NCBI GenBank assembly: GCA_000991405.1
Contig: LBRL01000001.1
Span: 222,172 to 286,171 of the forward strand
Source: Candidatus Nomurabacteria bacterium GW2011_GWD2_36_14
GTDB lineage: Bacteria > Patescibacteriota > Minisyncoccia > Phycocordibacterales > UBA9973
Direction of reading: 5' to 3'
Length of the DNA: 64,000 nucleotides
The stretch's first letter is position 1. Every line of letters starts with the position of its first letter. Shown here in pieces: positions 3,262 through 44,583 of the stretch. The translations under genes were made by a program, and so were the position numbers. The notes under the pieces were generated by a model. It had not been told where the DNA came from. It saw only the letters and a program-made list of their open reading frames with translations, and ran no database searches.

Positions 3262-3960
3262 TTATACCACAAGTGCTATATGTTCTAAAATCATTTTCAC
3301 ACTTGCTCCCGGAACAGAAAGAAAATCTCGACAATTTTTTAATTCATTTAAGATAAATTTAAGATTTTCATTATCTACATCACCTTTCCATTTCTTATAA
3401 ATAATTCTTTCAAGTCCATTGATGAGTGATGTGGCCTCATGTCGCAAGCCTCCACTGTTTTCATTGTCTTTAAACTCTTTAATTATTTCTGCTACTTTTT
3501 CTATGCGTGTACTCTGTGTAGAATTTATAAACAGAAAGGCAATCTTATCATCTTCACTATTATTATCACCTCCATTAATCCTAACTAAGTGCGTCCTTGA
3601 TAATATGGTATCTAGAAGTAGAGAGGCATCAGGTACAATGATGAAAAAATGTGAACTAGGAGTCGGCTCCTCGATTATTTTAAGTAAACTTTGCTCCGCT
3701 TCACGATTGATAAACTTGGCTCCAATTATGCAAATCTTTTTCCTTCCATCGGTGGGCTTGTTCTGATACCATTCCTTTATATCGTGACTATCTTGTATGG
3801 CAAACGAGTCAAAGATAGAAAGCATGACATCCGGACTGTTTCTATTCACTTCTCCTCTTTCTTCTAGAAAGACACGCAACAAATACGCTATGTCATCTAT
3901 GTTACTTTCTATCACATAGCTATGATATAAATCCTTCGGAAATAAATTATTGAAATCCAT
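3262..3960 (-). CDS. holB: DNA polymerase III delta-prime-like clamp-loader subunit
   Basis: KICIIGAKFINREAEQSLLKIIEEPTPSSHFFII...LLDTILSRTH (sensor/SRC-like). Start moved to MDFNN so it does not overlap the upstream gene. Confidence 0.6.
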   Translation of the reverse strand: MDFNNLFPKDLYHSYVIESNIDDIAYLLRVFLEERGEVNRNSPDVMLSIFDSFAIQDSHDIKEWYQNKPTDGRKKICIIGAKFINREAEQSLLKIIEEPTPSSHFFIIVPDASLLLDTILSRTHLVRINGGDNNSEDDKIAFLFINSTQSTRIEKVAEIIKEFKDNENSGGLRHEATSLINGLERIIYKKWKGDVDNENLKFILNELKNCRDFLSVPGASVKMILEHIALVV

Positions 3961-5846: not shown

Positions 5847-5942
5847 ATAATGTTTATAACTACTTTACTATATCACAAAATATAGGAAAAAATAAATGGG
5901 GGAGGAAGTATTAAAATTGAGATTTTGTGCTACCATATAAGT

Positions 5943-7937
5943 ATGTATATAGTAACTGTTATTCCAATACAAAAAGGTTTTCAAGGAGAAAATCTAACTT
6001 ACTTCTCTCCTGTCGAAATTCTTCTAGGAAGTATAGTCTCCATCCCTCTCCGATCTAAAACGAGAGACGCTATCGTCATAAATGTAGAGAATGTACGTGA
6101 TTTGAAATTTGATTTGAAAAAAGCAGACTTTCAACTTAAGAAAATAATAAATATCAAAGGTCCTTCCCCTTTTTCTCCAGCCTTCTTCACAGCTTGCGAG
6201 AAAATGAAAGACTACACTGTCAGTAATACAGGCACAATCATCAAATCACTTCTACCCGCTTTATTTCTAGAAAATTTGAAAGATTTGAAACGAGCAAAAA
6301 AAATAGATGAAGAAGCTAAATCCAACAAAGTTGGATCGCCCGACACTAGAGTAGAAGTGTTTAGGGAAAATATCAAACAAGAGAAATTAATTTTCCAAGC
6401 TCTTATTCCTGACCGTATGAGCTGGTATCGAACTCTGATACGAGAAGCTTTCGCAAAGAAGGAGTCAGTGTTCATATGTGTACCAACCCTTTTTGACATA
6501 GAACAATTCACAATCGAACTTACAAAGGGTATTAGCCAGTACGTCTTCTCCTTCCATGGAGACTTGAGCAAGAAGACACTTATAAATACATATAACTCTT
6601 GCATGGAAGAAACTCATCCAATACTTATCATCGGTACTGGCATGTTCCTATCTATTCCTCGAGAAGATATCCGGACAATTATAATCGAACATGAAAATTC
6701 AGATTCATATAAACAATTTTCTCGTCCGTTTCTCGACATCCGCACTTTCGCAGAGATCCTTTCATCTGTAAATAAAGTTAAGTTAATCTTTGGCGATACA
6801 CTTCTTCGTCCTGATACACTCTATAGACACGATGAAGGAATCCTAGGAGAAGTCGCTTCACCTCTCTTCCGTCTTCCACAAGCTGAGAGGCAAATGGTAG
6901 TAGATATGCGAGAGCAAGTCGACGACAAAGGAGTAAAATCTTTCACTGTATTATCCGATACAACAAAGAAAATGATTGCTTATGCTCTAGAGCACCATGA
7001 ATCCGTCCTTCTCTTCACTGTCCGTAAGGGATTGGCGGGAGTTACTGTATGTCATGATTGTGGATATACTCTTCTCTGTCCTACATGTTCTACTCCTGTC
7101 GTACTTTATGGTTCCAAGCAGAGAAATGCTACAAAGATTGTAAACTCCCGTATCTTCATGTGCAATAAATGTGGGTACAAAGATACAACCGAAGTCAGAT
7201 GTGTAAATTGTCAAAGCTGGAATCTTACCCCTCTGGGTATAGGAACAGATAGAGTATATGAAGAAGTGAAAAGTTTGTACCCCAATGCTAAAATAATCCA
7301 AATAGATAAAGAGACTATCACTTCCAACAAGGAAGCTAGAGGGAAAATGGCTGAATTCTATAAAAATCCCGGAAGCATACTCATAGGTACTGAAATGGTC
7401 TTCTCTTATATCAATACCGAAGTCACCCACAGCGCTATAGTCTCACTTGATGGGCTTCTATCTATACCAAGCTTCAATATCACACAAAAGATTCTTCATA
7501 TAATGGAGAAGCTCCACGAGACGACGAAACGCAATCTCATAATTCAAACTCGCATTCCGGAGAATCCAATACTAGAACATATACTAAACGGCAACGTCTT
7601 ACCTCTTTATCGTGAAGACTTAAAAGAAAGGAAACAATTTGGATACCCACCATTCAAAAGACTTATCAAGATAACCTTTGGAGGTTCTGCCAGTGAGACA
7701 GAGAAGGCACGTGCACACATCGATTCATTACTTGGTGGATATGAGCCACAGATATTTAGCGCCTTCATAGGCAAAGTAAAAGGTCAGTACACTACAAACA
7801 CCGTCATTAAAATAGACCCAAATCTCTGGCCACTACCTATAGACGACAAAAGCATATCAAATACTCACCTTAGAGAAAGTCTACGTAGCCTTCCTCCTGC
7901 ATTTTCTATAAATGTAGACCCCGAAGATTTACTGTAG
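5943..7937 (+). CDS. priA: Primosomal protein N' (PriA) homolog with degenerate ATPase motifs
   Basis: The N-terminus is a 3'-DNA-binding-domain-like VTVIPIQKGF...YFSPV. A Cys-rich zinc-binding region follows (CHDCGY..CPTC....CNKCGY...CVNC). Walker A (GSGKT) is absent and DEEH is replaced by IEHEN. Confidence 0.6.
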   Translation: MYIVTVIPIQKGFQGENLTYFSPVEILLGSIVSIPLRSKTRDAIVINVENVRDLKFDLKKADFQLKKIINIKGPSPFSPAFFTACEKMKDYTVSNTGTIIKSLLPALFLENLKDLKRAKKIDEEAKSNKVGSPDTRVEVFRENIKQEKLIFQALIPDRMSWYRTLIREAFAKKESVFICVPTLFDIEQFTIELTKGISQYVFSFHGDLSKKTLINTYNSCMEETHPILIIGTGMFLSIPREDIRTIIIEHENSDSYKQFSRPFLDIRTFAEILSSVNKVKLIFGDTLLRPDTLYRHDEGILGEVASPLFRLPQAERQMVVDMREQVDDKGVKSFTVLSDTTKKMIAYALEHHESVLLFTVRKGLAGVTVCHDCGYTLLCPTCSTPVVLYGSKQRNATKIVNSRIFMCNKCGYKDTTEVRCVNCQSWNLTPLGIGTDRVYEEVKSLYPNAKIIQIDKETITSNKEARGKMAEFYKNPGSILIGTEMVFSYINTEVTHSAIVSLDGLLSIPSFNITQKILHIMEKLHETTKRNLIIQTRIPENPILEHILNGNVLPLYREDLKERKQFGYPPFKRLIKITFGGSASETEKARAHIDSLLGGYEPQIFSAFIGKVKGQYTTNTVIKIDPNLWPLPIDDKSISNTHLRESLRSLPPAFSINVDPEDLL

Positions 7938-13432: not shown

Positions 13433-14941
13433 TTAATCTATTAAACTCTCCCCTGTCATCTCTTTTGGTTTTTCTATTCCGTACAATTCTAGGATTGTTG
13501 GGGTTATATTGGCAAGTGTTCCTTCACCTTTTAACTTTTTAGCTTCATCCGTCAAGATAAACGGCACAAGATCACTAGTATGCGAAGTATGTCGCAAACC
13601 AGTGATAGGATCAATGTTCACTTCAGCATTTCCATGATCTGCAGTCACTAAAGCAATACCACCTTTCAACTTTAAAGCTTCTAAAATTCTTCCCAATTCT
13701 TTATCAACTTCTTCAACAGCAATTATAATGGCCTCTACCTCGGAGGTATGACCTACCATGTCCGCATTGGCAAAATTCACAAATATGAAATCTGTACCCT
13801 TTTCTATTTGTTCTATTGCCTTATCTGCAACTCCTTCTGCTGACATTTTCGGAGCTAGATCATAAGTCAGAACACCTTGAGGACTCGGTACTAGAATTTG
13901 CTCTTCTCCTTTATAAGGAACTTCTTCTCCACAGTTTAAGAAATAAGTTGCATGAGCAAATTTCTCAGTCTCGGCAATGTGGGCTTGGGTCATACCATTT
14001 TCACTAATTGTTTTACCCAAGGTTTCATTTATCTTTGTTGCTGGAAATGCAACCAAACATTTATACTCCTTTTTGTATTCTGTCATTGTTACAAGGCACA
14101 CATTTTCACTTTTATATTTTTCCATTATTCTCTCAGTAATCATTCTCATACGATCAGCCCTAAAGTTAAATAGGAAGAAGCCATCGTTCTTGTTTACAGA
14201 GTAACTTCCCCCTTCTTTATTCACACAAACGAAAGGCTCTAAATGCTCATCCATTTTACCTTCTTTGTATAAATTCTCCACATACAAATGTGGCTCAATA
14301 TTACATTCTGTTCCCTTGCCATCAAATATAACTTCCTCGGCCTTAGCCATTCTTTCCCATCTTTGATCCCGATCCATAGCATAAAGACGTCCAGATACAG
14401 AAGCTATCTCTCCTACTCCAAGCTTCTCAATAAATTCTTCTAGCTCTTTTATATAGCTAGATCCAGATTGAGGTGGAGTATCTCGTCCATCTGTTATGAC
14501 ATGAATGGCAATCTTTTTTATTCCAGCATTTTTAGCAATTTCTAGGAATCCAAATAAATGCGACATGTGGCTATGTACACCACCTGTAGATAATAGTCCC
14601 GCAATATGGAGAGTAGAGTCATGCTTCTTCACATGAGCAAAGAGTTCAACAAAAGCAGAATTATCCTTAAATTCACCAGATGAAATCAATTTGTTAATTC
14701 TAACTATATCCTGATATAGAATCCTACCAGCTCCAATCGTCATATGCCCCAGCTCACTATTACCCATTTGTCCGTCAGGTAGCCCAAACTTAAGGCCTGA
14801 GGCCTCTAAAAGAGTATGCGGATACTGAGCCCAAATACTGTCAAAATTCGGCTTGTGAGCTGTTGCAATGGCATTATCTTTCGTCTCCTTTCTGTATCCC
14901 CAGCCATCTAGTACAATTAAAGCAATTTGTTTTTTTATCAT
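13433..14941 (-). CDS. gpmI: 2,3-bisphosphoglycerate-independent phosphoglycerate mutase
   Basis: 502 aa. N-terminus LIVLDGWG and the metalloenzyme core. The start codon abuts tRNA-Glu. Confidence 0.9.
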   Translation of the reverse strand: MIKKQIALIVLDGWGYRKETKDNAIATAHKPNFDSIWAQYPHTLLEASGLKFGLPDGQMGNSELGHMTIGAGRILYQDIVRINKLISSGEFKDNSAFVELFAHVKKHDSTLHIAGLLSTGGVHSHMSHLFGFLEIAKNAGIKKIAIHVITDGRDTPPQSGSSYIKELEEFIEKLGVGEIASVSGRLYAMDRDQRWERMAKAEEVIFDGKGTECNIEPHLYVENLYKEGKMDEHLEPFVCVNKEGGSYSVNKNDGFFLFNFRADRMRMITERIMEKYKSENVCLVTMTEYKKEYKCLVAFPATKINETLGKTISENGMTQAHIAETEKFAHATYFLNCGEEVPYKGEEQILVPSPQGVLTYDLAPKMSAEGVADKAIEQIEKGTDFIFVNFANADMVGHTSEVEAIIIAVEEVDKELGRILEALKLKGGIALVTADHGNAEVNIDPITGLRHTSHTSDLVPFILTDEAKKLKGEGTLANITPTILELYGIEKPKEMTGESLID

Positions 14942-15015
14942 GGTGACCCTACCGGGAATCGAACCCGGATTACCGGCTTGAAAAGCCGATGTCCTAACCG
15001 TTAGACGATAAGGCC
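14941..15015 (-). tRNA. tRNA-Glu (anticodon UUC), CCA encoded
   Basis: Acceptor GGCCTTA/TAGGGTC with G-U pairs, D-arm GTCTAACGGTTAGGAC, anticodon loop TTTTCAA, T-arm CCGGGTTCGATTCCCGG. Confidence 0.8.
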
Positions 15016-15114: not shown

Positions 15115-15501
15115 TTATTCTTTTGGTTTATAAAAGAAATCTTTTTTGATTTGAGTAACAACACACTTAGATGGGCCGAGTAGCTCTTCACCATGATAAT
15201 AATTCCCTATCCAAATACCCTCCTCTTCATTCTTAGTAAAAATATAATCAAGTTTTTCACCATAATGTTCTTTTGAAAAACTTAATTCATTATCACCAAT
15301 TTTGAAATTTGTAAGTGGAACGAATTTGTTGGTAACACAACCCCCTTGTTGTTCTTCATCAATAATTACCAAACCACTAAACATAGAGCAACTGACAATC
15401 TCTTTTGAAATGCCCGCAAGATCAACATGGAGTGATTTCCCCAAACTCCACAGATTGCTTCCACTAAGGTTAACACCTTGAATAAGATAAATTCTTTCCA
15501 T
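15115..15501 (-). CDS. Hypothetical protein (128 aa)
   Basis: ORF only. Confidence 0.4.
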   Translation of the reverse strand: MERIYLIQGVNLSGSNLWSLGKSLHVDLAGISKEIVSCSMFSGLVIIDEEQQGGCVTNKFVPLTNFKIGDNELSFSKEHYGEKLDYIFTKNEEEGIWIGNYYHGEELLGPSKCVVTQIKKDFFYKPKE

Positions 15502-15721
15502 CGCTTTAATATTAATTAATTATTAGAAAATAGTTATTAAGTTCTCTTAATTCCCATAAAGAAACTAAGAGAACCTAATAACGAGGTAGATATTAACAAT
15601 AATCAACAATTAAGAAATAAAAGAATTTTAATCTAGTATTTCTAATATATAATCACATTTTTGACAATATGTCAATATTATCAAGGGTACATTCAACATT
15701 GAAATATAACAATCTCTTGAA

Positions 15722-15745
15722 ATCCCCTTATATACCCCATCTTAT
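15722..15745. repeat. Intergenic punctuation repeat R3 (partial)
   Basis: aaatccccttatataccccatc. Confidence 0.5.
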
Positions 15746-16851
15746 TTATTTTCATCTTTTTTTGCTCCAAAAGATGGGAATCTATGTACATCGTAATCCT
15801 TTCTTATTTTTCGTAAATGCAATTTAATTGCCTTATTATAAGTGAAACTTTTATCAAGAAGCAATTTTGCACCTTTAACAATTTCTGGAATTTTCTTTTC
15901 TATAAGATCATCTGCAACACAAGCCACTCTTTTACCCTCTCTCAAGAGCCTGTCACATTCTTTGGTTCTATCATCAAGAGAGGGATATGAATTACATTTA
16001 GGAAGAACAGAATAAAATGGCACATCATTTAGGAAATACAATGGCCAACGACATGTAGCAATTTCTAACCATGGCGCATCAACAAGAAAAGCAAGAAATG
16101 CAAAACCAGTATGCGGTGAAAGAAAGATATCGCATTTTTTTATCAATGCTATCTGATTCCATAGACCAATATTGTATGCAGACTCTGCATTTTTAAGATG
16201 CTTGATTAAATAGTTTACATCATCCAAAGTAAAATCTTTTGTAAAAGTTCTATGATGATCACTTTTGGTAATACCCATAAAGTAAATTTTAAGATTTGGT
16301 ATTGCTTGTTCTAATGCCAAACAGATTTTAAGCCACATTTCAATAGAAGGACTTTGTCTTAATCCTTTAGCGCCACCAAGCATGATCGCAATTGTAGGAC
16401 CACGATGTTTAAATTTCTTTGCAAATGTTTTTGCTTTTGTCGGAATAGAAAGAGTAATTTTTGGATTGTGTACAACAGGTAGAATACTGCTATTCCTAGC
16501 AACAAATATTTTTTGTAACACTTCTTGAGTTTTTACTAATTCTACTCGGTCGTTTCCTTTTATTAGTCGACCCGCTCGATTATCACTACTAATATAATCC
16601 CAATTTTTCGGAATCTTTTGGAGACATTTTGCCTTTTCGCCGTCCTTGAAAACTTCCTCAGTTGAAATGGAATATGTTTTCTTAATCCATGAGCATGCGT
16701 CGGCAAGTTCTGTCGGAGTATTAGCATTGAGCAATAAATACACATCAAGATTTTTGTTTGCAAGCGAATAACCCTTGGCAAGTTTTAATGCTTCAACTGC
16801 GTGCCCGACTGGAGGATAATATACCCAGTTAAGTAGTAGTTTTTTCTTCAT
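15742..16851 (-). CDS. Glycosyltransferase family 9-like (heptosyltransferase fold)
   Basis: An N-terminal GT-B Rossmann region (LLNWVYYPPVGHAVEAL) and C-terminal SPHTGFAFLAFLVDAPWLEI resemble GT9 signature regions. Confidence 0.5.
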   Translation of the reverse strand: MKKKLLLNWVYYPPVGHAVEALKLAKGYSLANKNLDVYLLLNANTPTELADACSWIKKTYSISTEEVFKDGEKAKCLQKIPKNWDYISSDNRAGRLIKGNDRVELVKTQEVLQKIFVARNSSILPVVHNPKITLSIPTKAKTFAKKFKHRGPTIAIMLGGAKGLRQSPSIEMWLKICLALEQAIPNLKIYFMGITKSDHHRTFTKDFTLDDVNYLIKHLKNAESAYNIGLWNQIALIKKCDIFLSPHTGFAFLAFLVDAPWLEIATCRWPLYFLNDVPFYSVLPKCNSYPSLDDRTKECDRLLREGKRVACVADDLIEKKIPEIVKGAKLLLDKSFTYNKAIKLHLRKIRKDYDVHRFPSFGAKKDENK

Positions 16852-16886
16852 AAGATAATTATACCAAAACCTGAGTTAAATGTCTT

Positions 16887-16930
16887 AAATCCCCTTATCC
16901 TCCCCACAATCCGATTCCAATTTTATGACC
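16887..16930. repeat. Intergenic punctuation repeat R1 (44 bp)
   Basis: aaatccccttatcctccccacaatccgattccaattttatgacc. Confidence 0.7.
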
Positions 16931-16973
16931 TAAAGATATATTTAAATTTTGGAACATTTGCTATAATAAACTT

Positions 16974-17438
16974 ATGAATAAAAAATTTATTGTAGCAATG
17001 ATTAAAGTTGTTACTCTTTGTATTATTATATTTGCAGTCAGTGCTTTCTTTATATCTGATGCAAAGATTATTGGATGGGCAGTATTAGCATTAGGATTAT
17101 TCTGTCTAGTTTCTCTAGAATTTTTCAAAATTCCGATAAAAAATGTATGGCCTGATATAGTCTTTGGTTTAATTGATAATGGTATCTTAGCTATTTTAGC
17201 TGTTATTGGTGGTTCTATTGCAGGTGTAGCTGGAGCGATTATTGGAGGAGTTGTTGGTAACGCTATTACAGATGGAATTGCTGGAGTATTTGAAGGAGAT
17301 ATGGCAGAACGATTAAGAGAGAGTAATATATCTGAGTCAAGAACAATGCTTGGCTCGTCTGTAGGTAAAATGGCTGGATGTCTTTTGGGGGCTGGGGTAG
17401 TGCTAATAATAGCAAATTTAATTAACCCAACTTTGTAG
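16974..17438 (+). CDS. Membrane protein with glycine-zipper segment
   Basis: TM helices plus GGSIAGVAGAIIGGVVGNAITDGIAG. Confidence 0.5.
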   Translation: MNKKFIVAMIKVVTLCIIIFAVSAFFISDAKIIGWAVLALGLFCLVSLEFFKIPIKNVWPDIVFGLIDNGILAILAVIGGSIAGVAGAIIGGVVGNAITDGIAGVFEGDMAERLRESNISESRTMLGSSVGKMAGCLLGAGVVLIIANLINPTL

Positions 17439-17456
17439 TATTTATATTAAATTTCC

Positions 17457-17500
17457 AAAATCCCCTTATATTCCCCACAATTCGATTCCAATTTTAAGCC
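17457..17500. repeat. Intergenic punctuation repeat R2 (44 bp, about 90% identical to R1)
   Basis: aaaatccccttatattccccacaattcgattccaattttaagcc. Confidence 0.7.
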
Positions 17501-17566
17501 TTATCCCCAACACAAAAGCACCCTCGAATTTAAAGGCGCTTTTGTTATGTATAATTTCAATATAAA

Positions 17567-17899
17567 CTATTGGGGCTTGTTTGGATTGATCTTATCTATT
17601 GTATACTGGCCATTGTTTATATGTATTCTACTTTCTCCTAAAGTATTTAGGATTAAATTTAGAATTCCAAACACTGCAACCATTATAAACATTCCAAAAA
17701 TTCCCCAGAACATGTGCTTCTTGCTCGTCTTCTTGATCTCCTCATTGTCAGGAGATATCAAATACTGAAAGAGTCCGTACATGAAGTAAATTACAGCTAA
17801 AGCAAATAGGAACATTATAAGCGGACCTATAATAACCCTATTGATGCTATTCATAAGCGTAGTGACACTTGCCTCTGCAATTGGAAAGATTGAAATCAT
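17567..17899 (-). CDS. VirB2/TrbC-like pilin-type small membrane protein, paralog 1
   Basis: Two hydrophobic helices separated by a short charged loop (LISPDNEEIKKTSKK). Paralogous to the four downstream genes. Confidence 0.55.
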   Translation of the reverse strand: MISIFPIAEASVTTLMNSINRVIIGPLIMFLFALAVIYFMYGLFQYLISPDNEEIKKTSKKHMFWGIFGMFIMVAVFGILNLILNTLGESRIHINNGQYTIDKINPNKPQ

Positions 17900-25720: not shown

Positions 25721-25746
25721 CAGATAGGGGCTCAACCCCTATCTGG
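25721..25746. repeat. REP-like GC hairpin, copy A; the transposase stop codon lies in its loop
   Basis: cagataggggctcaacccctatctgg. Confidence 0.8.
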
Positions 25747-26436
25747 CAAACTCTCTATAACAACATTCAAATTTTCATCTTCAAGAAGAGATTTCTTTCC
25801 TCTTTCTTCTCTCACTATAGAAACTATTTCATCACAATGTTTTTTAAACTTATTTATTCCTCTAAAGATTTCTAAAATTCTTTTCCCTTCTTTTTTAGAT
25901 ATTATATTGAACTTATTATTTTCATACTCAAAATCTCCCGAGAAAACTAAATCACTTTTGTTTTCTGGAATATTATGAATTAAATAATTTTTATTTACAT
26001 AGCCTATCAATTTATTAAAATAATTATCATTAGCTATCAATTGAGATTTAAATCTACCTTGAAATAAAACTCCAGATCTAGTGTTTTTAATATTAAAATA
26101 TGAAGTATAACCACCAGATAACTTATGCATAAATTTAGAAATACCATTATCTGAAACTTGTTTTAAAATCAAATGAAAATGGTTGGGATTTAAACAATAC
26201 CCTACTACTTCCACTAGTGATTCCCCAGATAGGGGCTCAACCCCTATCTGGGGATTTGATTTTAATTTTCGCAAATTTGCTAGACTATTTATTTTATCTT
26301 CTCGATTAAATTCTTTTATGCTTTCGATAAAGCGATAAATATCATTTTTATCAGTAAAAATATCTCGTTTATCTACCCCGCGATTATAAATATGATACAT
26401 CTCTCCTGTTATTAGAGGTTGTCTTCTTATACTCAT
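25732..26436 (-). CDS. IS200/IS605-type HUH Y1 transposase (RAYT-like)
   Basis: MYHIYNRGVDKRDIF, HFHLIL (HUH), GVLFQGRFKS. Contains an in-frame REP hairpin insertion. Confidence 0.75.
   Translation of the reverse strand: MSIRRQPLITGEMYHIYNRGVDKRDIFTDKNDIYRFIESIKEFNREDKINSLANLRKLKSNPQIGVEPLSGESLVEVVGYCLNPNHFHLILKQVSDNGISKFMHKLSGGYTSYFNIKNTRSGVLFQGRFKSQLIANDNYFNKLIGYVNKNYLIHNIPENKSDLVFSGDFEYENNKFNIISKKEGKRILEIFRGINKFKKHCDEIVSIVREERGKKSLLEDENLNVVIESLPDRG
26223..26253. repeat. REP-like GC hairpin, copy B, inside the transposase ORF in frame (encodes PQIGVEPLSGE)
   Basis: ccccagataggggctcaacccctatctgggg. Confidence 0.8.
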
Positions 26437-36842: not shown

Positions 36843-37802
36843 TTACTCCCACTCAAATCCCCTTCCAAAGTGTCCCCAAGTGCAAGTATCGCGAAATTTG
36901 ACTTGGTCTAATTTCAAGTACTCATGTATACCTCTTGGAGTGAGATCGTAGCCAGATATTTCCGACTCTTGCCCATCTATGACAGCTACCGCCATGACGG
37001 GCTCTTCTTGCCCTATAGCATAAGCGAGCTTTGTATAGACTTCTTTAGCATTATTCTTCTTCAGTAGTTCTACTGCTATCTTGCGAGCCATATAAGCTCC
37101 AGAGCGGTCAACCTTCGTATCATCCTTCCCCGAGAAGGAGCCTCCGCCTATCGTTATTTCTGGACCATAATTATCTACTATTAGCTTTCTTCCCGAGAGG
37201 CCTGTGTCTGCGTCAAATCCTCCCAAGGTCCATTCGCCTGCTGGATTTATAAGATATTTATCAGACTCAATAATACTTTTTACAAGTTCTAGTAATTTAT
37301 CGTTTTTTGTATTTTGAAAGCTAGCGACAACTGTAGTGACCACTCCATCCTTCACTGTTACTTGCGTCTTGCCATCATACGGATAAACTTCAAATATCTT
37401 TTGGCACAAATTCCGAGCAAGGTGGTACTCAAGTGGTAGGTATGAGTCCGTCTCACCTGTAGCATATCCTTTCATAATTCCCTGATCGCCAGCTCCACCA
37501 GTGTCTACACCTTGGGCTATTTGCGGACTTTGTAAAACAATATTTGAAATAATTTTAAAATCTTTACCAACTATATCTTTCACAACTTGCTCTATGTCTG
37601 GGTTTGCTTTTGAAGTTACCTCACCATTTATAGTTACAAGTCCATGCCCACCCATTACTTCTATTGCACAACGACTACTCTTGTCGCCATCTAGATATGC
37701 GTCTAATATACTGTCTGCAATAAAATCACATATTTTATCTGGATGCATTGGACTCACAAACTCTGCTGTCTTTATACTCATGCTTGATTCTTGGCCGAAC
37801 AT
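36843..37802 (-). CDS. metK: S-adenosylmethionine synthetase
   Basis: HPDKICDFIADSILDA..., GGGSFSGKDDTKVDRSGAYMAR. Confidence 0.85.
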   Translation of the reverse strand: MFGQESSMSIKTAEFVSPMHPDKICDFIADSILDAYLDGDKSSRCAIEVMGGHGLVTINGEVTSKANPDIEQVVKDIVGKDFKIISNIVLQSPQIAQGVDTGGAGDQGIMKGYATGETDSYLPLEYHLARNLCQKIFEVYPYDGKTQVTVKDGVVTTVVASFQNTKNDKLLELVKSIIESDKYLINPAGEWTLGGFDADTGLSGRKLIVDNYGPEITIGGGSFSGKDDTKVDRSGAYMARKIAVELLKKNNAKEVYTKLAYAIGQEEPVMAVAVIDGQESEISGYDLTPRGIHEYLKLDQVKFRDTCTWGHFGRGFEWE

Positions 37803-37869
37803 TTTTAATAAAATGTTTTAGGCTTAAATTAAAAAATTCTCTATTAAGAGAAAAGATATAGATGACTAG

Positions 37870-37992
37870 TCTTATCTTTCCACCGCGCCTTGCCGTAGCT
37901 TTATGCGTAGGCAGGTTTGTTGGCTGGATTTAGCACCTTGCTTTAGTAGGTTGCTGATGGGTCATTGAGCCAGTTGCTCTCGCCATACTCCT
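37870..37992 (-). promoter_or_regulatory. SAM-I (S-box) riboswitch in the metK leader
   Basis: Reverse complement reads UUAUCAGGAG..GGCGAGAGCAACUGGCUCAAUGACCCAUCAGCAACC...AAGGUGCUAAAUCCAGCC...GGAAAGAUAAGA. P1 pairs UUAUC/GAUAAG. Downstream there is a UUCUCU-UAAU-AGAGAA-U6 terminator-like hairpin. Confidence 0.8.
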
Positions 37993-38108
37993 GATAATTA
38001 ACTATTTAGTTGTAGATAGATTATAGCATAATATTAAAAATTATCTATTTCAGGGTCATTTTACTTTTCTCCCCTTTTTTGTTAATATACGGAAGTGAGT
38101 TTAAACAT

Positions 38109-38183
38109 TCCGTGGTAGCTCAGCGGTAGAGCGATCGCCTGTTAAGCGATTGGTCGTAGGTTCGATCCCTACCCACGGAGCCA
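38109..38183 (+). tRNA. tRNA-Asn (anticodon GUU), CCA encoded
   Basis: Acceptor TCCGTGG/CCACGGA, D-arm GCTCAGCGGTAGAGC, anticodon loop CTGTTAA, T-arm GTAGGTTCGATCCCTAC. Confidence 0.9.
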
Positions 38184-39737
38184 GACAGGACAAAGGGACT
38201 CAAAAGAGTCCTTTTGTCGTTTATTAGTAACTGTTTTATTTAGTTCGAAAATCTTTTGAGCATCTATTTTTTCTTGAACTCTCTTAGATAGGACCTCAAC
38301 AGGTTTCTTTAGTAACGGTATGACTTTTTCGTCTTTTAACATCAAGTTCGAAAAAATATGAGATAAAAGTAATCTTCGTTCTTCAGGACTTCTTTTTTCA
38401 TATATTTCTCTTGCTCTAAAAGCAAGATCTAATATATTTAACCAAATTTCAAAATATTTTGTTTCTACATTTTTTATTCTTGATATTTGTTCTTGTATCT
38501 CTGATTGTTCTTGATTTATTTCTTTTTGTTTTTTCTCCCAACCTTCAGTACTAATTTTTTGATCAAGTCTATCATTGTAGAGTATATCTAGTCGACTCTG
38601 TAGTTGAATATAACGAGCATTAAGAGTGTTTAGAGTGTTCTCTTTGTATTCTATCTCTTGAGCATGATTTGTTTTAATTTTGGCTTTTATAGCCTCAGCT
38701 TCTTTTTCTGTAATATTCTCAAAAAACTTGAAAACTCCGAAAAGCTGTTCCTCAATTTTCTTCTCTGGAGTATATGGTTTTTGAGTGCAGTCTTTATAAT
38801 GGTTACAATGATAATACACAATTCCTTTCTTTATCTCCGCTGTAATAGTACAGTTACATTCTCCACATTTCATCATCTTTCTAAATTGGAAACTATGTTT
38901 GCTGTAGGTAGGAGCTAGATGACCCCTTCTCACACTCTGGGCTTTATCAAATAGTTCTTTTGTGATTATAGGCTCATGCTTTCCTCCTGAGTGAAGTATA
39001 CTATTCCATCTCATAGCTCCGTAATAGAATGGTTCATTTAGAAGGTCTTCTATTCTATTTTTGGCTGGTTTATTACCTGCACGAGTTCTAAATCCTTCAG
39101 TATAAAGTTTTTGCCTCAATGCTTCCATCGAATAGTTACCACTGGCATACATTTCGAAAGCCTTTTTAATAAATGGAGCTACTTCTTCATCAATTACATG
39201 AATTTTGTGCCCTTTATCTCCAATTGTTTTGTACCCAATAGGAGGCTTAGTTGGAAGCCACCCCTGAGCTAATTTTTCCACTTGACCTTTCTTAACTTCC
39301 TCAGAAAGATTAGATATAAACTTTTTAGCTAACACAATTTCAATATCCCAACGAAACTTTTCATCAGATTTGGCATTCTTATGAAGAATAAGATTTTGTT
39401 TTACGAAGTGTATCTTTCTTTCTAAATCTTCATCTATCCAGTCATTAGCAAATACAGCTTCTTTTAAGTTACGAGTTAAACGATCCACCTTTTCAACTAT
39501 TAGATTCTTAATGTCATTTTTCTCTATAAATGACATCATTTCTGCGAATACTTTTCTCTGTTTTGCTCCACTAGCACTCTCGGCCACAGCAAATACTTTT
39601 ACATTTGTAATTCCTTTTCTATTGGCATATTCAGAGAGTAATTTCTCCTGTGAAGGAAGAGAATAACCTGTTTCTTCTTGTTCTTTTGAAGAAACTCGGC
39701 AATATAGCACAGAATTATTTATATTAGAGGTTTTCAT
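38169..39737 (-). CDS. Large serine recombinase (integrase); the last 5 codons overlap the tRNA-Asn 3' end
   Basis: N-terminal catalytic YCRVSSKEQ; C-terminal Cys-rich zinc-ribbon and coiled-coil typical of large serine recombinases. Confidence 0.8.
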   Translation of the reverse strand: MKTSNINNSVLYCRVSSKEQEETGYSLPSQEKLLSEYANRKGITNVKVFAVAESASGAKQRKVFAEMMSFIEKNDIKNLIVEKVDRLTRNLKEAVFANDWIDEDLERKIHFVKQNLILHKNAKSDEKFRWDIEIVLAKKFISNLSEEVKKGQVEKLAQGWLPTKPPIGYKTIGDKGHKIHVIDEEVAPFIKKAFEMYASGNYSMEALRQKLYTEGFRTRAGNKPAKNRIEDLLNEPFYYGAMRWNSILHSGGKHEPIITKELFDKAQSVRRGHLAPTYSKHSFQFRKMMKCGECNCTITAEIKKGIVYYHCNHYKDCTQKPYTPEKKIEEQLFGVFKFFENITEKEAEAIKAKIKTNHAQEIEYKENTLNTLNARYIQLQSRLDILYNDRLDQKISTEGWEKKQKEINQEQSEIQEQISRIKNVETKYFEIWLNILDLAFRAREIYEKRSPEERRLLLSHIFSNLMLKDEKVIPLLKKPVEVLSKRVQEKIDAQKIFELNKTVTNKRQKDSFESLCPVWLRG

Positions 39738-39825
39738 AATTGTATTTTAACTTATTTTTATAATTTATTATAATCTTTTTATTTAGTCTTATTAGTATGA
39801 CCTTAAGTCATGTATAAATTTACTG

Positions 39826-40188
39826 TTAGTCATATGGACCCTGTGACTTTAAGTCACTTGGTTTAGTAGCCCAATCCTTTGAATGCGTAAGATAGTACTG
39901 ATTACTGACCCATTGTCCTCTACTTTTTGTTTTGGTTATTTTTATAAATCCATATTTTTCTAAGATAGGGAGATGTCTAATAACTGTTCTTGGGTTTATG
40001 TGCAATTCTTCTGATATTAGTACCTCTGATGGGAATGCAATTCTAGTCTTGCTGTTTGAGTGTCTTTTTAGGCAAAGATAGATAGAAGTCCCTATGGGTC
40101 CTATAAGTTTTGCATATTGGTCTATAAATACATTACCCATCTTAAACCAACCTCCATTTTTTGTTTTTATATATTTCAGCTCATTCAT
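39826..40188 (-). CDS. Winged-HTH protein resembling the RepA_N / replisome-organizer N-terminal domain
   Basis: FIDQYAKLIGPIGTSIYLCLKRHSN...ISEELHINPRTVIRHLPILEKYGFIKI. Confidence 0.5.
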   Translation of the reverse strand: MNELKYIKTKNGGWFKMGNVFIDQYAKLIGPIGTSIYLCLKRHSNSKTRIAFPSEVLISEELHINPRTVIRHLPILEKYGFIKITKTKSRGQWVSNQYYLTHSKDWATKPSDLKSQGPYD

Positions 40189-40195
40189 AAATTTA

Positions 40196-40468
40196 TTAAA
40201 TATTAGAATCTAGAGTTGATTCCCTAGGAGCTGACACTAGGGAATCAACTTTAAGTTCCAATTTTTCTTTTTGTTTATCTTCATAATCAAACTTTGCAAG
40301 CAAGTCAAAAAAAGATGAAAGTTCATTCAACTCTTGAATATTTAATTCTTCTTCTGTTGAGCTATCTAATCTCATTGTTAAAATACTGACGACATATTTT
40401 TTCAATCGTCTTAGATAAGGTAAAATTCTTTTTCTGAGATAACTCAGAAAGTTTCTCGTGTAGATCAA
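40196..40468 (-). CDS. Hypothetical protein (90 aa)
   Basis: ORF only. Confidence 0.35.
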   Translation of the reverse strand: MIYTRNFLSYLRKRILPYLRRLKKYVVSILTMRLDSSTEEELNIQELNELSSFFDLLAKFDYEDKQKEKLELKVDSLVSAPRESTLDSNI

Positions 40469-40647
40469 CCACTATACGAATTTGCTTCGTAATTCTTCTT
40501 CTTTTTGCGTGACAAATTATCTTTACCATTTAATAATTATCTCATCACTTATTACTGGTGGTAACTTTCTTTTACCTTCACTCTATATTCACGCAATGTA
40601 AAAAAATAACCCTATTTAATAAGGTTATTTTTACTTGTGGATAAGTA

Positions 40648-41313
40648 CTACTTAATAATTGAGATGGAAAAAATGTATTTATTAAAACAATAGCCAGAAC
40701 CAGCAGGAATAATTAAATTATTTTCTTGCTCAAATTTATCTTCAAAAGATTTGTTTATATTTTTAATAGCAGTAGAAACACTTCGTTCTTCTGAATATCC
40801 AGCTTCTTCTGTTAGTTTAGACATCGTTTTTGGTGATCCTTTTGACAACAATTTTAATATTTCTAGTTTTTTATCACTAACTTTTATTGAATTTTTTGAG
40901 TCTTCCTTAAGAAAAATCAGACCTCGTAAGTCTATACAAACTTTTTGTTTATTATCTTTTTTTGTATACTTTTGTAAAGTAATTGGATTATCTTCTATTT
41001 GATTTTTAAGTAATTCAATTTTTTCTTTTGCTATGCTGGGGGCAATTCTTCTAATTAGTAAATCATCACCTATATTCTCTTCAGAAAAATATTGCTGTTT
41101 ATCTATTAGGATCAGTTTTTCAAGTACTTTCGATAAATTATTTAAGTCTTGCATAGTAACACCATAAGCATTCAATGAATAAAGGGGTATTCTAGTATTA
41201 GAAGAAAAACCAGGAAAACCTTTTTGGTAATTTTCAATAAGGTTTACAACTTGTAACATTTTATCACAGTCTTCTTTTGTTAGTTTAGGTGTATTGATAA
41301 TATATTCTTCCAT
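40648..41313 (-). CDS. DNA-binding protein with C-terminal OmpR/PhoB-type winged helix, no receiver domain
   Basis: VSDKKLEILKLLSKGSPKTMSKLTEEAGYSEERSVSTAIKNINKSF. Confidence 0.45.
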   Translation of the reverse strand: MEEYIINTPKLTKEDCDKMLQVVNLIENYQKGFPGFSSNTRIPLYSLNAYGVTMQDLNNLSKVLEKLILIDKQQYFSEENIGDDLLIRRIAPSIAKEKIELLKNQIEDNPITLQKYTKKDNKQKVCIDLRGLIFLKEDSKNSIKVSDKKLEILKLLSKGSPKTMSKLTEEAGYSEERSVSTAIKNINKSFEDKFEQENNLIIPAGSGYCFNKYIFSISIIK

Positions 41314-41861
41314 ATTAAAGATAATCTCATTTTTTTAGGTTTTTGTCGACAATTTTTTATTTAATTGAGTCAAAGAAATGCGACCTTTTGCGACCCATTA
41401 TATTTATCGATATTTTATAAGACTCTTTAATCTAATAATTTCTTATTGGAATTAAATATACTTCCACAAAATATCTTGTAAATAAATGACATTCTGATCA
41501 TACCCATACTAAAATACCGAGTTTTGCCTAGTCCTAAAATGCCACCTTTTGCCACCCACTCTTCCCGCCTTTTCCCACCCCTTTTCACCTCTAATACATC
41601 AGACTTTTTCAGACTTTTTATAAAAGAATCTATTTATTGTATTTGTCGACAAAAAGAGCTATTATAAAAATACAACGCCTAAACCAGAAATGGCATGGCT
41701 ACATAGGAAACCCACGCAAATAGTAATGGCCTCACAGTCATCACCATTTGCGTGGGTCCATATTCGAAAGAGTATGGGGTGTTCTCGAAAGAGGATATCA
41801 GATGGTCTGTGGGGCCTTTACTGTCTTCATAACCATATTATAAATTAAAAACCCACGCAAA
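41314..41861. promoter_or_regulatory. AT-rich noncoding region with palindromes and direct repeats (candidate operator/iteron-origin region of the element)
   Basis: TTGTCGACAA palindrome twice (about 41341 and 41643). AAACCCACGCAAA twice, forming a 12-bp inverted repeat at 41710-41762. A CCACC(T)TTT pyrimidine-repeat tract. Confidence 0.5.
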
Positions 41862-42848
41862 ATGAAAAAAATACAAATAATTTGTTTAATTGTTTTTTGT
41901 TTTCTTTCTTTTAGTATCGCCCGTGCAGAAACTTTGATTATAAAATCAGTGGATAAAAGAATAGAAGATATTGAAAAATCTCGAGAGAAACTTCAAAAAG
42001 ATATTGAAAATAATTATAAACAAGTTCAAGCTGAATTAAAAAGTTTAAGTGCAAGAATAGACACTAATATAAAAAGTGAATTTTATTGTGTATTACCAAC
42101 TCAAACTTGCACGGAATCTATCTATCAAGGTATTAGAGGAACTGCCATATCGAGTGGTCTTATTCCAGATGCTGGTCAACTTGCTCAATGCAGAGCTAAG
42201 ATTGATGAATATAATACAAAATTACAGGAATATAATAAATGTTTTCAAGATTGGCAAAATAAAAAGATTGGAGATTCGGCTCAAAAAGAATACGATTATC
42301 AATTGCAAGTATATGAATTAAAATCACAATTAGCCTGTATGGATAAAGAAGGACACTATTCGTCTTTCAATAAAATAACTAAACAATGTGAGTGTGTAGA
42401 AGGTTCAACATTCGTCAACGGAAAATGCATAAATCGTATAGATAATCTACTTATGTGCGTAAAAACTTTTGGTCCATTATCTCATTATGATTACGACAAA
42501 GCTGGTTGTGTATGTGATGAGGGTAGTAAATTAGATCTCGAAAAAGATCTATGTGTTGCTGAAACAGAAAAAGTAGTACCTCCCCCAGTAAAAGAAAAAT
42601 CTCCCTATAAGAATAAATTTCAGGAAATTTTACAACAAAAGGAAACTGAACAACCCTTAAAACCCTCTCAAGGGCTTAAAGAAAGTCCCAAGAGCATAAT
42701 TACTGTTGTAGAGGAGAAAGTACCTTCACAGGCTGAAATTACCCCAAATACTTCGCATGATATACAACCTCCAGCTATTACAGGTCCATCAAATGTAACA
42801 TTCTGGCAAAAAATTAAAAAAAACTTCTTGAAAATTAAGTTTTGGTAA
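41862..42848 (+). CDS. Secreted Cys-rich protein with N-terminal coiled-coil (signal peptide)
   Basis: Signal peptide MKKIQIICLIVFCFLSFSIARA and multiple C..C pairs. Confidence 0.5.
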   Translation: MKKIQIICLIVFCFLSFSIARAETLIIKSVDKRIEDIEKSREKLQKDIENNYKQVQAELKSLSARIDTNIKSEFYCVLPTQTCTESIYQGIRGTAISSGLIPDAGQLAQCRAKIDEYNTKLQEYNKCFQDWQNKKIGDSAQKEYDYQLQVYELKSQLACMDKEGHYSSFNKITKQCECVEGSTFVNGKCINRIDNLLMCVKTFGPLSHYDYDKAGCVCDEGSKLDLEKDLCVAETEKVVPPPVKEKSPYKNKFQEILQQKETEQPLKPSQGLKESPKSIITVVEEKVPSQAEITPNTSHDIQPPAITGPSNVTFWQKIKKNFLKIKFW

Positions 42849-42858
42849 AAATACTTTT

Positions 42859-43122
42859 ATGAAAATTAACCTATTATTTTGGATATTTATACTAATAGCT
42901 TTCATTGGAACATTTTTATATTATCTAGGAGAAACAAGGAAGAATAATATCGGTGAGGTCATTAAGTTTTCTGGAGGAATTATTACATTTGGTATTCTAA
43001 TATCCTCATTCTTTTTATTAGAATGGAAGGCGTCATTCTTGCTTATTATTGGCGAATTCACAATAATCAGTTTTTTATCAACTTTACTTGTTGAATCTAT
43101 GACAAAGAGACGTATAAATTAA
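42859..43122 (+). CDS. Small membrane protein (3 TM)
   Basis: ORF with hydrophobic helices. Confidence 0.4.
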   Translation: MKINLLFWIFILIAFIGTFLYYLGETRKNNIGEVIKFSGGIITFGILISSFFLLEWKASFLLIIGEFTIISFLSTLLVESMTKRRIN

Positions 43123-43127
43123 ATATT

Positions 43128-43541
43128 ATGGAAAAATTAAAGGGGCTGATAATTAGTGTATTACAAGAAGAACAAACTAATCATATGAATAAACAAAAAA
43201 GAATCAAGGAGTTGGTATTGGCTATCGTTTTAACAATTTTACCAATTTTTATATTTATAATAATGCCTGCATTAGAAGATAAATACTTTGACTTGTTTTC
43301 TGGGCGTTTGATGTACCTAAGTCAAGATTATTATTTTTCTTTTTCCCCACTTTTTATCTTTGATTTGCCTTACTTTTTTACCCCAATAATATCAGCTTTG
43401 GCAGTATGGTTTTGTCTTAAAATTAGAAAAAGTATAGAAAATAGAAGTTCATTTTTTAACTACCTTAATCTCGTCTTAATTGTTTTGAATAGTGTTTTTT
43501 CCTTATATTCCTTATGGTTTTTATTGTTATTTTATAAATAA
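43128..43541 (+). CDS. Membrane protein (4 TM)
   Basis: ORF with hydrophobic helices. Confidence 0.4.
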   Translation: MEKLKGLIISVLQEEQTNHMNKQKRIKELVLAIVLTILPIFIFIIMPALEDKYFDLFSGRLMYLSQDYYFSFSPLFIFDLPYFFTPIISALAVWFCLKIRKSIENRSSFFNYLNLVLIVLNSVFSLYSLWFLLLFYK

Positions 43542-43597
43542 AAATCTAAAATCGTAGTATTATTTGATAATTTATTATTTTCGTATACAATATACAT

Positions 43598-44572
43598 ATG
43601 GCAAAAGAAGAAAAGCAGATTATCGAGAATAATTCAAAAAATGGTGTAAATGAAAAGATACCAAATAATGAAGATTCTGCTCAAAATAAGAAAGTCGAAG
43701 AAGAAATATCTCCTCTTAAAAAATTATTAAAGAAGAGTGATGTTTTGCTTATGTTATACCCAAAAGACATAAATGGAAATTTTTCAGCCAGCATTGATCC
43801 TGAAGATGAAATTTCTATTTATAAACTTTTGAAGGAAAAGAAGGAGAAGAAAAAAGAACTTTTAATTTTATTAGATACAAGTGGTGGTAATGTATATTCG
43901 GCGGTTAAAATAATGGATACATTAAGAACCCAATATAATCAAATAAATATTGCAATACCGCAGGAAGCTAAAAGTTCTGGAACTATGATGTGTTGTGGTG
44001 CTAATAATTTAATAATGAGTTCTATCTCTGAACTTGGACCATTAGATAAGCCAATGATTCATCCTAATGATGAGACAGCAAGAATCTCTGCTTTAGATAT
44101 TATTAAATCTATCGATGGCATGTTGGATACTGCACAACAAAGAGAAAAAGATTTTGCCAAAGAGGTAAATAATGATTTTGGAATACCTATTAAACAAAGT
44201 TTGCAATTAGCAAGTGAATCAATCTCTAAACTAATATCACCTATGTTGTGTAGAGAAGATGTAAAAATCTATAATCAAGCCCAAAGATTACTTGTTATAG
44301 CCCAGAAATACGCCACTGAACTATTAGACGCACATATGTTAAAATATATTGATCGTAAAAAACTTAAAGAGAGAATTATTGATATGACTACTAGGCAGTT
44401 GATATGGGCATATCCTGACCATAGTTTTGCTATTAGACGAGATGAATTGAGAGAATGGTTTTTTATTGTAAAAAATTCTGAAGATGTTGATTATTGGGAC
44501 GAACTTTGGGATAAATTTTATCAAAATATAGGTTATAAAAATAGTAAATTGATTAAATTTTTAGATAATTAA
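43598..44572 (+). CDS. ClpP/crotonase-fold serine peptidase, SDH (serine dehydrogenase proteinase)/S49-like
   Basis: ILLDTSGGNVYSAVKIMDTLR...IPQEAKSSGTMMCCGANNLIMSSISELGPLDKP matches the lhTpGG...A.SaGT.ia.aAdei.M....lGpiDP pattern. Confidence 0.55.
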   Translation: MAKEEKQIIENNSKNGVNEKIPNNEDSAQNKKVEEEISPLKKLLKKSDVLLMLYPKDINGNFSASIDPEDEISIYKLLKEKKEKKKELLILLDTSGGNVYSAVKIMDTLRTQYNQINIAIPQEAKSSGTMMCCGANNLIMSSISELGPLDKPMIHPNDETARISALDIIKSIDGMLDTAQQREKDFAKEVNNDFGIPIKQSLQLASESISKLISPMLCREDVKIYNQAQRLLVIAQKYATELLDAHMLKYIDRKKLKERIIDMTTRQLIWAYPDHSFAIRRDELREWFFIVKNSEDVDYWDELWDKFYQNIGYKNSKLIKFLDN

Positions 44573-44583
44573 GATATAATTTT

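Follow-up and report, generated by a model that had tools for sequence, protein, structure and literature searches.

Which process placed a set of short direct repeats between consecutive genes near the tRNA-Glu gene of Candidatus Nomurabacteria bacterium GW2011_GWD2_36_14, and what do these repeats bound? The stretch of DNA analysed (contig LBRL01000001.1, positions 222,172 to 286,171; 64,000 nucleotides, referred to here as the window) contains three copies, R1 (16876-16932), R2 (17447-17503) and the partial R3 (15720-15739). All three had been picked out in an earlier sequence-only reading and all three are real; a search of the 64 kb found no others. R1, R2 and R3 are degenerate members, read on the minus strand, of a repeat family that we designate E. 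E marks the sharp borders of interchangeable, self-expressed cassettes, which stand in co-oriented arrays at a single locus on the 3′ side of tRNA-Glu. Judged from sequence comparisons, E is probably an attachment-type recombination site that bounds small, non-autonomous cassettes beside tRNA-Glu.

Results

The E family and its arrays

The unit had been described as a 44-bp repeat. The repetition holds, while its size and strand do not: the natural unit is ~58 nt long and is read on the minus strand. A seed pattern derived from the four best copies was scanned against metagenome contigs of the Joint Genome Institute (JGI) and gave 27 exact matches in 22 loci. In 24 non-redundant loci of Nomurabacteria and Parcubacteria (loci are numbered with the prefix L), the profile from 27 copies recovered 75 copies, of which 67 are non-redundant. 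The consensus of ~58 nt, written as the minus strand of the window, is tGTGACCCwAGkGGGnnnrAATTGGAAyCnGATTGTAGrGAATATAAGGGGATTT and is often followed by AGGGAATTA. The arm of E contains an invariant AAATTGGAA block, followed by three TAGGGAAT-like direct repeats at a spacing of ~10 bp, with TAAGGGGATTT among them. The 5′ third occurs in genome-specific types (AAGTGGGACAA, CTAGGGGGTTC and AAACGGGACGG), evidence of homogenisation within genomes.

Adjacent copies of E point in the same direction in 43/43 pairs and are spaced 466-3195 bp apart, with a median of 731 bp. The arrays amount to 43 kb in total, and no copy was detected at an E-value < 1e-3 in the 180 kb of the same loci that lie outside them. 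The hundreds of dispersed copies expected of a generic element of the repetitive extragenic palindromic (REP) type, which the sequence-only reading had named as the finding that would count against it, were not present in these 180 kb.

The E family is widespread in Parcubacteria and apparently undescribed. Full-text literature searches on integrons, Patescibacteria repeats and gene cassettes returned no description of it, the seed pattern had no match in IMG/VR, and the phage and plasmid collections gave nothing meaningful. The 20-mer core AAATCCCCTTATNNNCCCCA, searched in genome contigs, gave 47 single matches in unrelated taxa, which is about the number expected by chance. One such chance-level match, in a patescibacterial locus (L010 3196-3223), also has the 8 nt upstream (caatctct) in common with the context of R3; the rest of the E element is not continued there.

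Cassettes and their turnover

Each interval between E copies contains one to three open reading frames (ORFs), which are unrelated. By our own tally from the array map, 31 intervals begin, downstream of E, with an ORF in the sense direction and 32 with one in antisense. The cassettes are compact, self-contained transcription units, each with its own promoter and terminator. Sense cassettes have a TTGACA-type promoter 10-30 nt past E, and antisense cassettes have a terminator after E, with 0-3 nt between their -35 box and the GTGACCC of the following E, an arrangement seen for ~10 copies.

The arrays have almost no cassette families in common. The predicted products include Maf, histidine phosphatases (His_Phos_1), DJ-1/PfpI, a Zn alcohol dehydrogenase (Zn-ADH), an FkbM methyltransferase, a serine hydrolase, proteins with HD (HD_3), PAS (PAS_3) and peptidoglycan-binding (PG_binding_1) domains, an AAA_13 ATPase, a pyridoxal phosphate (PLP) enzyme and an IS30-like transposase. 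In Parcubacteria RAAC4_OD1_1 (L083 1687-3555), an ArsP permease, a Thioredoxin_3 protein and an ArsR-type HTH_5 regulator, an arsenic-related group, make up a single cassette with an E copy on each side. By these assignments the cassette content is functionally unrelated and accessory in character.

A cassette-type recombination site was one of the candidates in the sequence-only reading, which proposed that gene content between the repeats be compared among strains. The content differs, and the comparative data favour this candidate: it varies among relatives and even between near-identical strains, and the copies stand in strictly co-oriented arrays restricted to one locus. The trend is exemplified by L066 and L073, which are 100% identical over 1277 bp from the first bases of one E and 98.3% identical over 172 bp on the other flank, where the similarity ends ~15 nt past another E. 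Between these same two E copies, one member of the pair has four cassettes (3.2 kb) and the other has two unrelated ones (1.4 kb). A further example is the F5 cassette (168 aa), which has E on both sides and different neighbours in L061 and L078, with 69% nucleotide identity.

The 369-aa protein encoded in the window, which has a counterpart of 100% identity in Candidatus Nomurabacteria bacterium RIFOXYC2_FULL_36_8, was traced through several loci. L057, closely related to the window, encodes a 91%-identical copy with three repeat copies, one upstream of its promoter (as R1), one after its stop (as R3) and a third further upstream; the two upstream repeats enclose a 139-aa gene that is absent from the window. 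In L051/L082 the homologue is 88% identical and has one degenerate repeat upstream. An 87%-identical homologue (L053 6001-7146) is located in the cell-division (dcw) cluster, mraW-PBP-murE, where E is absent, and therefore the 369-aa gene also moves between loci by other routes. The L053 homologue adjoins a pair of Polbeta nucleotidyltransferase genes and a GIY-YIG gene.

The differences in cassette content between strains have their breakpoints at E; these cannot be placed inside E because the copies within a genome are nearly identical. An attempt to locate the crossover from 5′-truncated copies, which begin near the dyad or at AAATTGG, was suggestive only.

The tRNA-Glu link and repeat X

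In the window, L057, L051/L082, L058, L069, L073, L065 and L066 the array is flanked by the last pilin gene on one side and by the iPGM region on the other; in L061/L063 and L083 it is inverted relative to these pilin/iPGM flanks. In nine loci (L058, L061/L063, L064, L065, L066, L072, L078, L082 and L083) a tRNA-Glu gene is located beside the array or a single E with its 3′ end pointing towards it. E opens with the 9 nt GTGACCCTA, an exact reverse-complement match to the final 9 nt of tRNA-Glu, counted up to the first C of CCA; the tRNA-Glu of the window ends in TAGGGTCAC, the reverse complement of GTGACCCTA. The exact correspondence between tRNA and E covers 9-14 nt (TAGGGTCAC / CCCnnTAGGGTCAC), and the remaining ~28 nt of the repeat are unlike the tRNA. 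The reverse complement of E also aligns colinearly with positions 44-73 of tRNA-Glu, with one 4-nt insertion (p = 0.001-0.02, 1000 shuffles). No such alignment was found between E and tRNA-Val, tRNA-Ser, tRNA-Asn or tRNA-Glu in the other orientation. The best-conserved columns of E are the parts unlike the tRNA.

All junction types at the tRNA-Glu locus share the terminal 9 nt of the tRNA. The core GTGACCYTA is common to the tRNA, to E, to a second repeat (X), at each of its two inverted ends, and to the distal end of the serine-recombinase islands (GTGACCTTAATGATACC).

Repeat X is 130-170 nt long, and at each of its ends stands a copy of the tRNA-Glu 3′ end, the two in inverted orientation (GTGACCCTAccgggaa ... 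ttcccgg, a hairpin, then TTAGGGTCAC). It was located at L058 3270-3400, L066 1385-1520 and 4160-4330, L082 11150-11350 and L083 ~3297-3461, and had no match in Rfam. An internal stretch of 34 nt, GGGACCGCGAGTACGCTTATCGAACCTTACAGGT, is 100% identical in L058, L066 and L082. A degenerate 5′ portion of a tRNA-Glu-like gene adjoins the intact tRNA-Glu at L082 17800-17875 and may be a displaced tRNA-Glu fragment.

Recombinases at tRNA-Glu

A large serine recombinase of 513-516 aa overlaps the 3′ end of tRNA-Glu by ~41 nt in 5/5 contexts (L066, L082, L083, L084 and L085). These recombinases are orthologous and have Resolvase, Recombinase and Zn-ribbon domains. The junctions of their islands have quasi-symmetric half-sites about the core, reading CCCATTGG, GTGACCCTA and ATGAT in that order. 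The tRNA-Glu-specific large serine recombinase of the relatives is a candidate for the enzyme that would act on E, and a candidate, though an imperfect fit, for moving E cassettes in trans.

An ORF of 120-123 aa (L066 10295-10657, L083 9527-9898 and L085 9472-9837) is found directly upstream of the recombinase gene. In precomputed Pfam annotation, the small ORFs of L083 and L085 have the Resolvase catalytic domain only, and the L066 ORF is taken as equivalent by position.

The array in the window

The features of the window array, in the direction in which the repeats are read, are as follows.

17567..17899, minus strand: last gene of the T4SS_pilin cluster (Pfam PF18895; orthologues by tblastn)
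17514..17543, minus strand: terminator-like hairpin of the last pilin gene, AAAAGCGCC...GGTGCTTTT (read from the sequence; failed a stricter terminator scan)
17454..17517, minus strand: E copy 1, R2 (nhmmer 34.9 bits, E-value 1.6e-9, profile positions 20-63; also by pattern match and alignment)
16974..17438, plus strand: cassette 1, ORF for a 154-aa membrane protein, antisense to the repeats (weak TMEM65 match only)
16883..16946, minus strand: E copy 2, R1 (nhmmer 32.4 bits, E-value 9.4e-9, profile positions 22-64)
16858..16886, minus strand: promoter-like site of the glycosyltransferase-like (GT) gene, AAGACA, 17-nt spacer, TG-TATAAT (promoter scan, 10/12 matches plus the TG extension)
15742..16851, minus strand: cassette 2, the 369-aa protein, a distant GT9 heptosyltransferase relative (no Pfam match; distant homologues carry PF01075)
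15716..15759, minus strand: E copy 3, R3 (nhmmer 11.9 bits, E-value 0.024 on its own)
15115..15501, minus strand: cassette 3, ORF of 128 aa (no Pfam match; no tblastn match in other loci)
14941..15015, minus strand: tRNA-Glu (UUC), by ARAGORN and Rfam

Upstream, the array is flanked by the last pilin gene, and this flank is conserved in the window, L057, L051/L082, L058, L069 and L073; the terminator-like hairpin that follows this gene is the upstream boundary of the window array. The first array site, R2, comes after this terminator, and lies between it and the stop of the 154-aa gene. R1 is located between the divergent starts of the 369-aa and 154-aa genes, and R3 starts 3 nt past the stop of the 369-aa gene; these three placements are as the sequence-only reading gave them. 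Two of its gene labels need qualifying: 'GT9' was applied to a 369-aa protein that has no Pfam match itself, PF01075 being found only in distant homologues, and 'glycine zipper' had as its sole basis a sub-threshold TMEM65 match of the 154-aa protein.

R1 and R2 align without gaps over 57 nt at an offset of 571 bp, with 84% identity. In the 39-nt core, 36/39 positions are identical. The degenerate 39-mer of the sequence-only reading has two exact matches on the plus strand, at 16887-16925 and 17458-17496 (shuffle expectation: none in 100). R3 is a partial copy of 20 nt. The 12-mer that is common to R1, R2 and R3, taken alone, is marginally non-random (3 seen against 0.87 expected; at least 3 in 5/100 shuffles). 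R3 is colinear with the full element at L059 4533 and its downstream leader, ATTTCAATGTTGAAT, and because of this colinearity in a relative it is considered a genuine degenerate copy.

In R2 the 3′ two-thirds are canonical (AAAATTGGAATCGAATTGTGGGGAATATAAGGGGATTT) and the 5′ part is not (GTGTTGGGGATAAGGCTT). R1 is canonical from AAAATTGG on, is without the GTGACCC core, and has its 3′ end against the -35 box of the GT promoter; the same position in L057 is occupied by a full copy (5908-5968). R3 is an internally deleted, degenerate stub, canonical only in GGGGTATATAAGGGGATTT, and the last codons of the 369-aa ORF overlap its upstream half. The profile scores are 35 (R2), 32 (R1) and 12 (R3) bits, against 40-67 bits for canonical copies, so that a remnant of duplication, also among the earlier candidates, is in part an apt description of the window's own degenerate copies.

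The window tRNA-Glu is inverted relative to that of the nine related loci and has its 5′ end towards the array. The rule that the elements lie immediately 3′ of the tRNA, with repeats co-oriented with it, holds in those nine loci and fails in the window. The window array looks inactive or decaying, because it has three cassettes, two sites without a core and one stub, and a flipped tRNA-Glu. The flip could, as a speculation, reflect an inversion between inverted GTGACCCTA cores, for example those of X. The 154-aa, 369-aa and 128-aa genes are probably horizontally acquired cassettes and not members of the pilin operon.

The 154-aa gene has its own TGCTATAAT promoter at 16959-16967, read from the sequence, which stops 7 nt short of the ATG; the GT promoter-like site also ends 7 nt before the ATG and is kept in L057. 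Extended -10 boxes (TGnTATAAT) thus stand 7 nt from the ATG in both divergent cassette genes, at 16858-16867 (minus strand) and 16959-16967 (plus strand), and this short distance suggests that the mRNAs of the 154-aa and 369-aa genes may be leaderless. Between R3 and the 128-aa ORF there is a long AT-rich hairpin (15534-15581, minus strand) with 20 pairs and a T-tract after it. If, as is possible, the 369-aa gene in fact terminates at this hairpin, R3 belongs to the 3′ untranslated region of that gene. The CCA end of tRNA-Glu overlaps the ATG of the iPGM gene (14939-15015, minus strand), and because of this overlap co-transcription of the two in the window is implied.

Several other features of the window were noted. 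Five neighbouring genes belong to the T4SS_pilin family (PF18895) and are followed by a gene for a solute-binding protein. An S-adenosylmethionine (SAM) riboswitch (RF00162, 48.9 bits) at 37869-38000 (minus strand) lies upstream of the S-adenosylmethionine synthetase gene (36843-37802). The gene for a 522-aa large serine recombinase (38169-39737, minus strand) runs into the 3′ end of tRNA-Asn (38109-38183). It heads a low-GC (0.28-0.31) block of small ORFs at 38109-49430 (HTH_36, SDH_protease and DUF1508), which is probably an integrated mobile element or prophage. A LOOT RNA (RF03000; 60.8 bits against a gathering threshold of 46.4) is found inside this putative element at 41676-41799 (plus strand). 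A single-copy, IS200-like Y1 gene, similar to the REP-associated tyrosine transposases (RAYTs), is present at 25732-26436 (minus strand; PF01797, 29.1 bits against a cut-off of 23); no E copy is near it and no Y1 homologue was found in the other loci.

Tests of known site classes

The sequence-only reading stated that the repeats are not hairpins, and RNA folding agrees, with z-scores of 0.0 to 0.5 on both strands. RNAalifold predicted 0 pairs on 38 copies, where an attC site would form a hairpin. DNA and RNA folds yielded just a 5′ hairpin of 3-6 bp (z ~0.3), for which no covariation was detected, as 139-233/500 shuffles equalled it. Neither the attC core GTTRRRY nor its inverse RYYYAAC is found in the E consensus or column table. 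Several co-oriented E sites separate cassettes, which is the arrangement of attC sites in clusters of attC sites lacking integron integrases (CALINs). A complete integron was rejected, with no Phage_integrase-type (IntI) gene found in or beside the arrays, an ORF orientation of 31:32 and promoters belonging to the cassettes themselves. The conservation of E in sequence without structure fits a predicted protein-bound duplex site.

Other classes were also rejected. The att site of a large serine recombinase requires two quasi-symmetric half-sites about a central crossover dinucleotide, and in E the 5′ flank of GTGACCC is not conserved. For REP sequences and bacterial interspersed mosaic elements (BIMEs), E is not palindromic, is not dispersed in the 180 kb outside the arrays, is always co-oriented and has no copy near the RAYT-like gene of the window; mobilisation by a RAYT was likewise rejected, with no Y1 homologue in the other loci and no copy of E near the Y1 gene. 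Rfam 15 returned no RNA family for the repeats, whether at the gathering threshold or at E-value ≤ 1. Read as a sigma-70 promoter, E would consist of TTGGAA and TATAAG (G at -7) with 15 nt between them, and its orientation is not linked to the genes. A dif/Xer terminus site was rejected, as a GC-skew switch at the array is absent and there is no dif-like dyad. The spacings and key bases of the conserved blocks, read from the sequence, do not fit the sigma-54, FliA-type or integration host factor (IHF) consensus.

Discussion

The favoured reading is that a site-specific recombinase acts on E, cutting and rejoining it. Strand exchange would take place at the tRNA-like GTGACCC-N4-GGG, the first ~9-14 nt of E, and the next ~40 nt would act as a one-sided arm, bound by the recombinase or by some accessory protein. 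The array would be built up and reshuffled through repeated integration next to the tRNA and through exchange from one E copy to another.

A number of observations weigh against an attachment site. No recombinase was found inside or directly beside the E cassettes in the 24 loci; the search covered ~40 flanking and cassette proteins, with one IS30-like cassette and the tRNA-Glu serine-recombinase islands as the exceptions. Among E copies there is no conservation to the left (5′) of GTGACCC, where a serine integrase would need its second half-site. L084 and L085 have recombinase islands without E arrays. The window's own serine-recombinase island at tRNA-Asn has no long direct repeat, and because of this a 58-bp repeat is not regarded as the usual product of serine recombinases. 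Neither circular cassettes nor empty sites were observed. The similarity of E to the tRNA is weak beyond 9-14 nt, and the F12 cassette family occurs in both orientations relative to E. In the window itself, tRNA-Glu points away from the array and R1 and R2 are coreless.

The main rival is homologous recombination with E as portable homology, against which the regulatory and pure-scar readings are weaker. In this explanation, which we consider unlikely, DNA taken up by natural transformation recombines by a RecA-type process between the ~58-bp repeats, so that cassettes are swapped, deleted or added, and the arrays persist as the repeats keep supplying homology. Patescibacteria are thought to be naturally competent, which suits this explanation, as does the failure to find a linked recombinase. 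The flanks of L066 and L073, 98-100% identical with all cassettes different, are what replacement through flanking homology would give, and the within-genome homogenisation of the 5′ part of E points to gene conversion. Portable homology leaves unexplained, however, the invariance of AAATTGGAA and TAAGGGGATTT across lineages whose iPGM is ~70% identical, the strict co-orientation of the copies, and the 9-bp core that the tRNA-Glu end and the recombinase-island junctions have in common. A cis-regulatory module is rather improbable. E would here be an operator or upstream-activator site, or else the promoter of an alternative sigma factor (TTGGAA, a spacer of 15 nt, TATAAG, then GGGA), and would co-regulate the genes of the accessory locus. 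Its 3′ end abuts the GT -35 box in the window and L057, a TTGACA-type promoter follows many copies within 10-30 nt, and the approximately three direct repeats at ~10-bp spacing in the 3′ arm are like response-regulator sites. Against this, the downstream gene is antisense to E in 32 cases and sense in 31, the antisense cases have a convergent terminator after E, and the copies are co-oriented whatever the direction of the genes. The -10-like hexamer has a final G, where a T is required by sigma-70, and follows a spacer of 15 nt. The cassette functions are unrelated. The sequence-only reading had suggested a binding site for a common regulator of the surface-protein locus; with unrelated genes in either orientation (31 vs 32) to the repeat, this candidate is not supported.

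Two further explanations carry less weight. That the copies are passive scars, namely displaced 3′ ends of tRNA-Glu and local duplications left by past island integrations and without present function, is quite improbable, even though the window copies are degenerate (R1 and R2 coreless, R3 a 20-nt stub), the end of E matches the tRNA 3′ end and recombinase islands do integrate at tRNA-Glu. Neutral scars would show their best conservation in the tRNA-like columns, the reverse of what is seen, and E copies stay highly similar between genomes whose cassette DNA is ~69% identical. Highly improbable, and largely refuted, is a selfish dispersed repeat of the REP/BIME type or like a miniature inverted-repeat transposable element (MITE), perhaps mobilised through Y1, or else a small structured RNA or a solitary repeat like those of clustered regularly interspaced short palindromic repeats (CRISPR). 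E is short and intergenic, a PF01797 gene is present in the window as a single copy, and the 5′ part of E, GTGACCC-N4-GGGAC...ATTGGAAC, is superficially like a CRISPR repeat when read from the sequence. E has no palindrome or conserved structure (z ~0.3), its copies are co-oriented and restricted to one locus, it does not lie beside the Y1 gene, Y1 homologues were not found in the other loci, Rfam gave no match, and IMG/VR and the phage and plasmid collections gave no hits.

A more specific version of the attachment-site reading is put forward tentatively, and we hold it to be possible rather than likely: that E belongs to a previously undescribed cassette-capture platform of Nomurabacteria and related Parcubacteria, integron-like in its working and different in mechanism. 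Such a platform would use a linear, non-hairpin site of 58 bp with a crossover core that mimics tRNA-Glu, would have the tRNA as the primary insertion point and would depend on a trans-acting recombinase, possibly of the tRNA-Glu-specific large serine family, to shuffle promoter-bearing cassettes. If E is active, these ultra-small, host-dependent bacteria would maintain a hot spot devoted to the exchange of accessory genes, including those for arsenic resistance, hydrolases and surface-modifying enzymes. The site architecture of this hot spot would differ from that of integrons and would represent a second, independent solution to cassette capture. Strain-level variation in the gene content of genomes of 0.7-0.8 Mb would be explained, and searches of Candidate Phyla Radiation metagenomes for variable accessory genes would have a simple marker in the E profile.

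The E array is integron-like or tandem tRNA-island-like in its working and fails the defining attC tests. Among known systems, REP/BIME sequences and their RAYTs resemble E in that the repeats are short and intergenic and a RAYT-like gene is present in the window; they differ in that E is not palindromic, not dispersed, always co-oriented and not beside that gene. As for the attP and attB sites of large serine recombinases, the island junctions carry the same GTGACCYTA core as E; E is conserved on one side of the core only and its arm is unlike either arm of the island sites.

Like integron arrays and CALINs, the E arrays have co-oriented short sites between small cassettes of highly variable accessory content. 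Sedentary chromosomal integrons share with E the homogenisation of sites within one genome, and CALINs share the lack of an adjoining integrase. Integrons differ in their attC sites, which are imperfect hairpins with a GTTRRRY/RYYYAAC core, whereas E is conserved in sequence and not in structure. Integron cassettes are mostly promoterless and co-oriented, and those of E have their own promoters and lie in either orientation at ~50:50. The primary site of an integron is attI and that of the E arrays is apparently the 3′ end of a tRNA gene. Integrons use an IntI-type tyrosine recombinase, and none was seen with E.

Tandem accretion at tRNA genes is known from tRNA-linked genomic islands, from the cis-mobilisable elements (CIMEs) of streptococcal integrative and conjugative elements (ICEs) and from the tycheposon islands of Prochlorococcus. 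As in the E arrays, the modules lie on the 3′ side of the tRNA, and modules without an integrase lie beside integrase-bearing islands at the same tRNA. The modules are bounded by direct repeats that reproduce the tRNA 3′ end, as E may do in part. E differs from these systems in three respects. The sole integrase seen at tRNA-Glu is a large serine recombinase, a class that normally occurs without long repeats; the modules are cassette-sized, with a median of ~0.7 kb; and only 9-14 nt of the 58-bp E are tRNA-like, the rest being a separately conserved arm.

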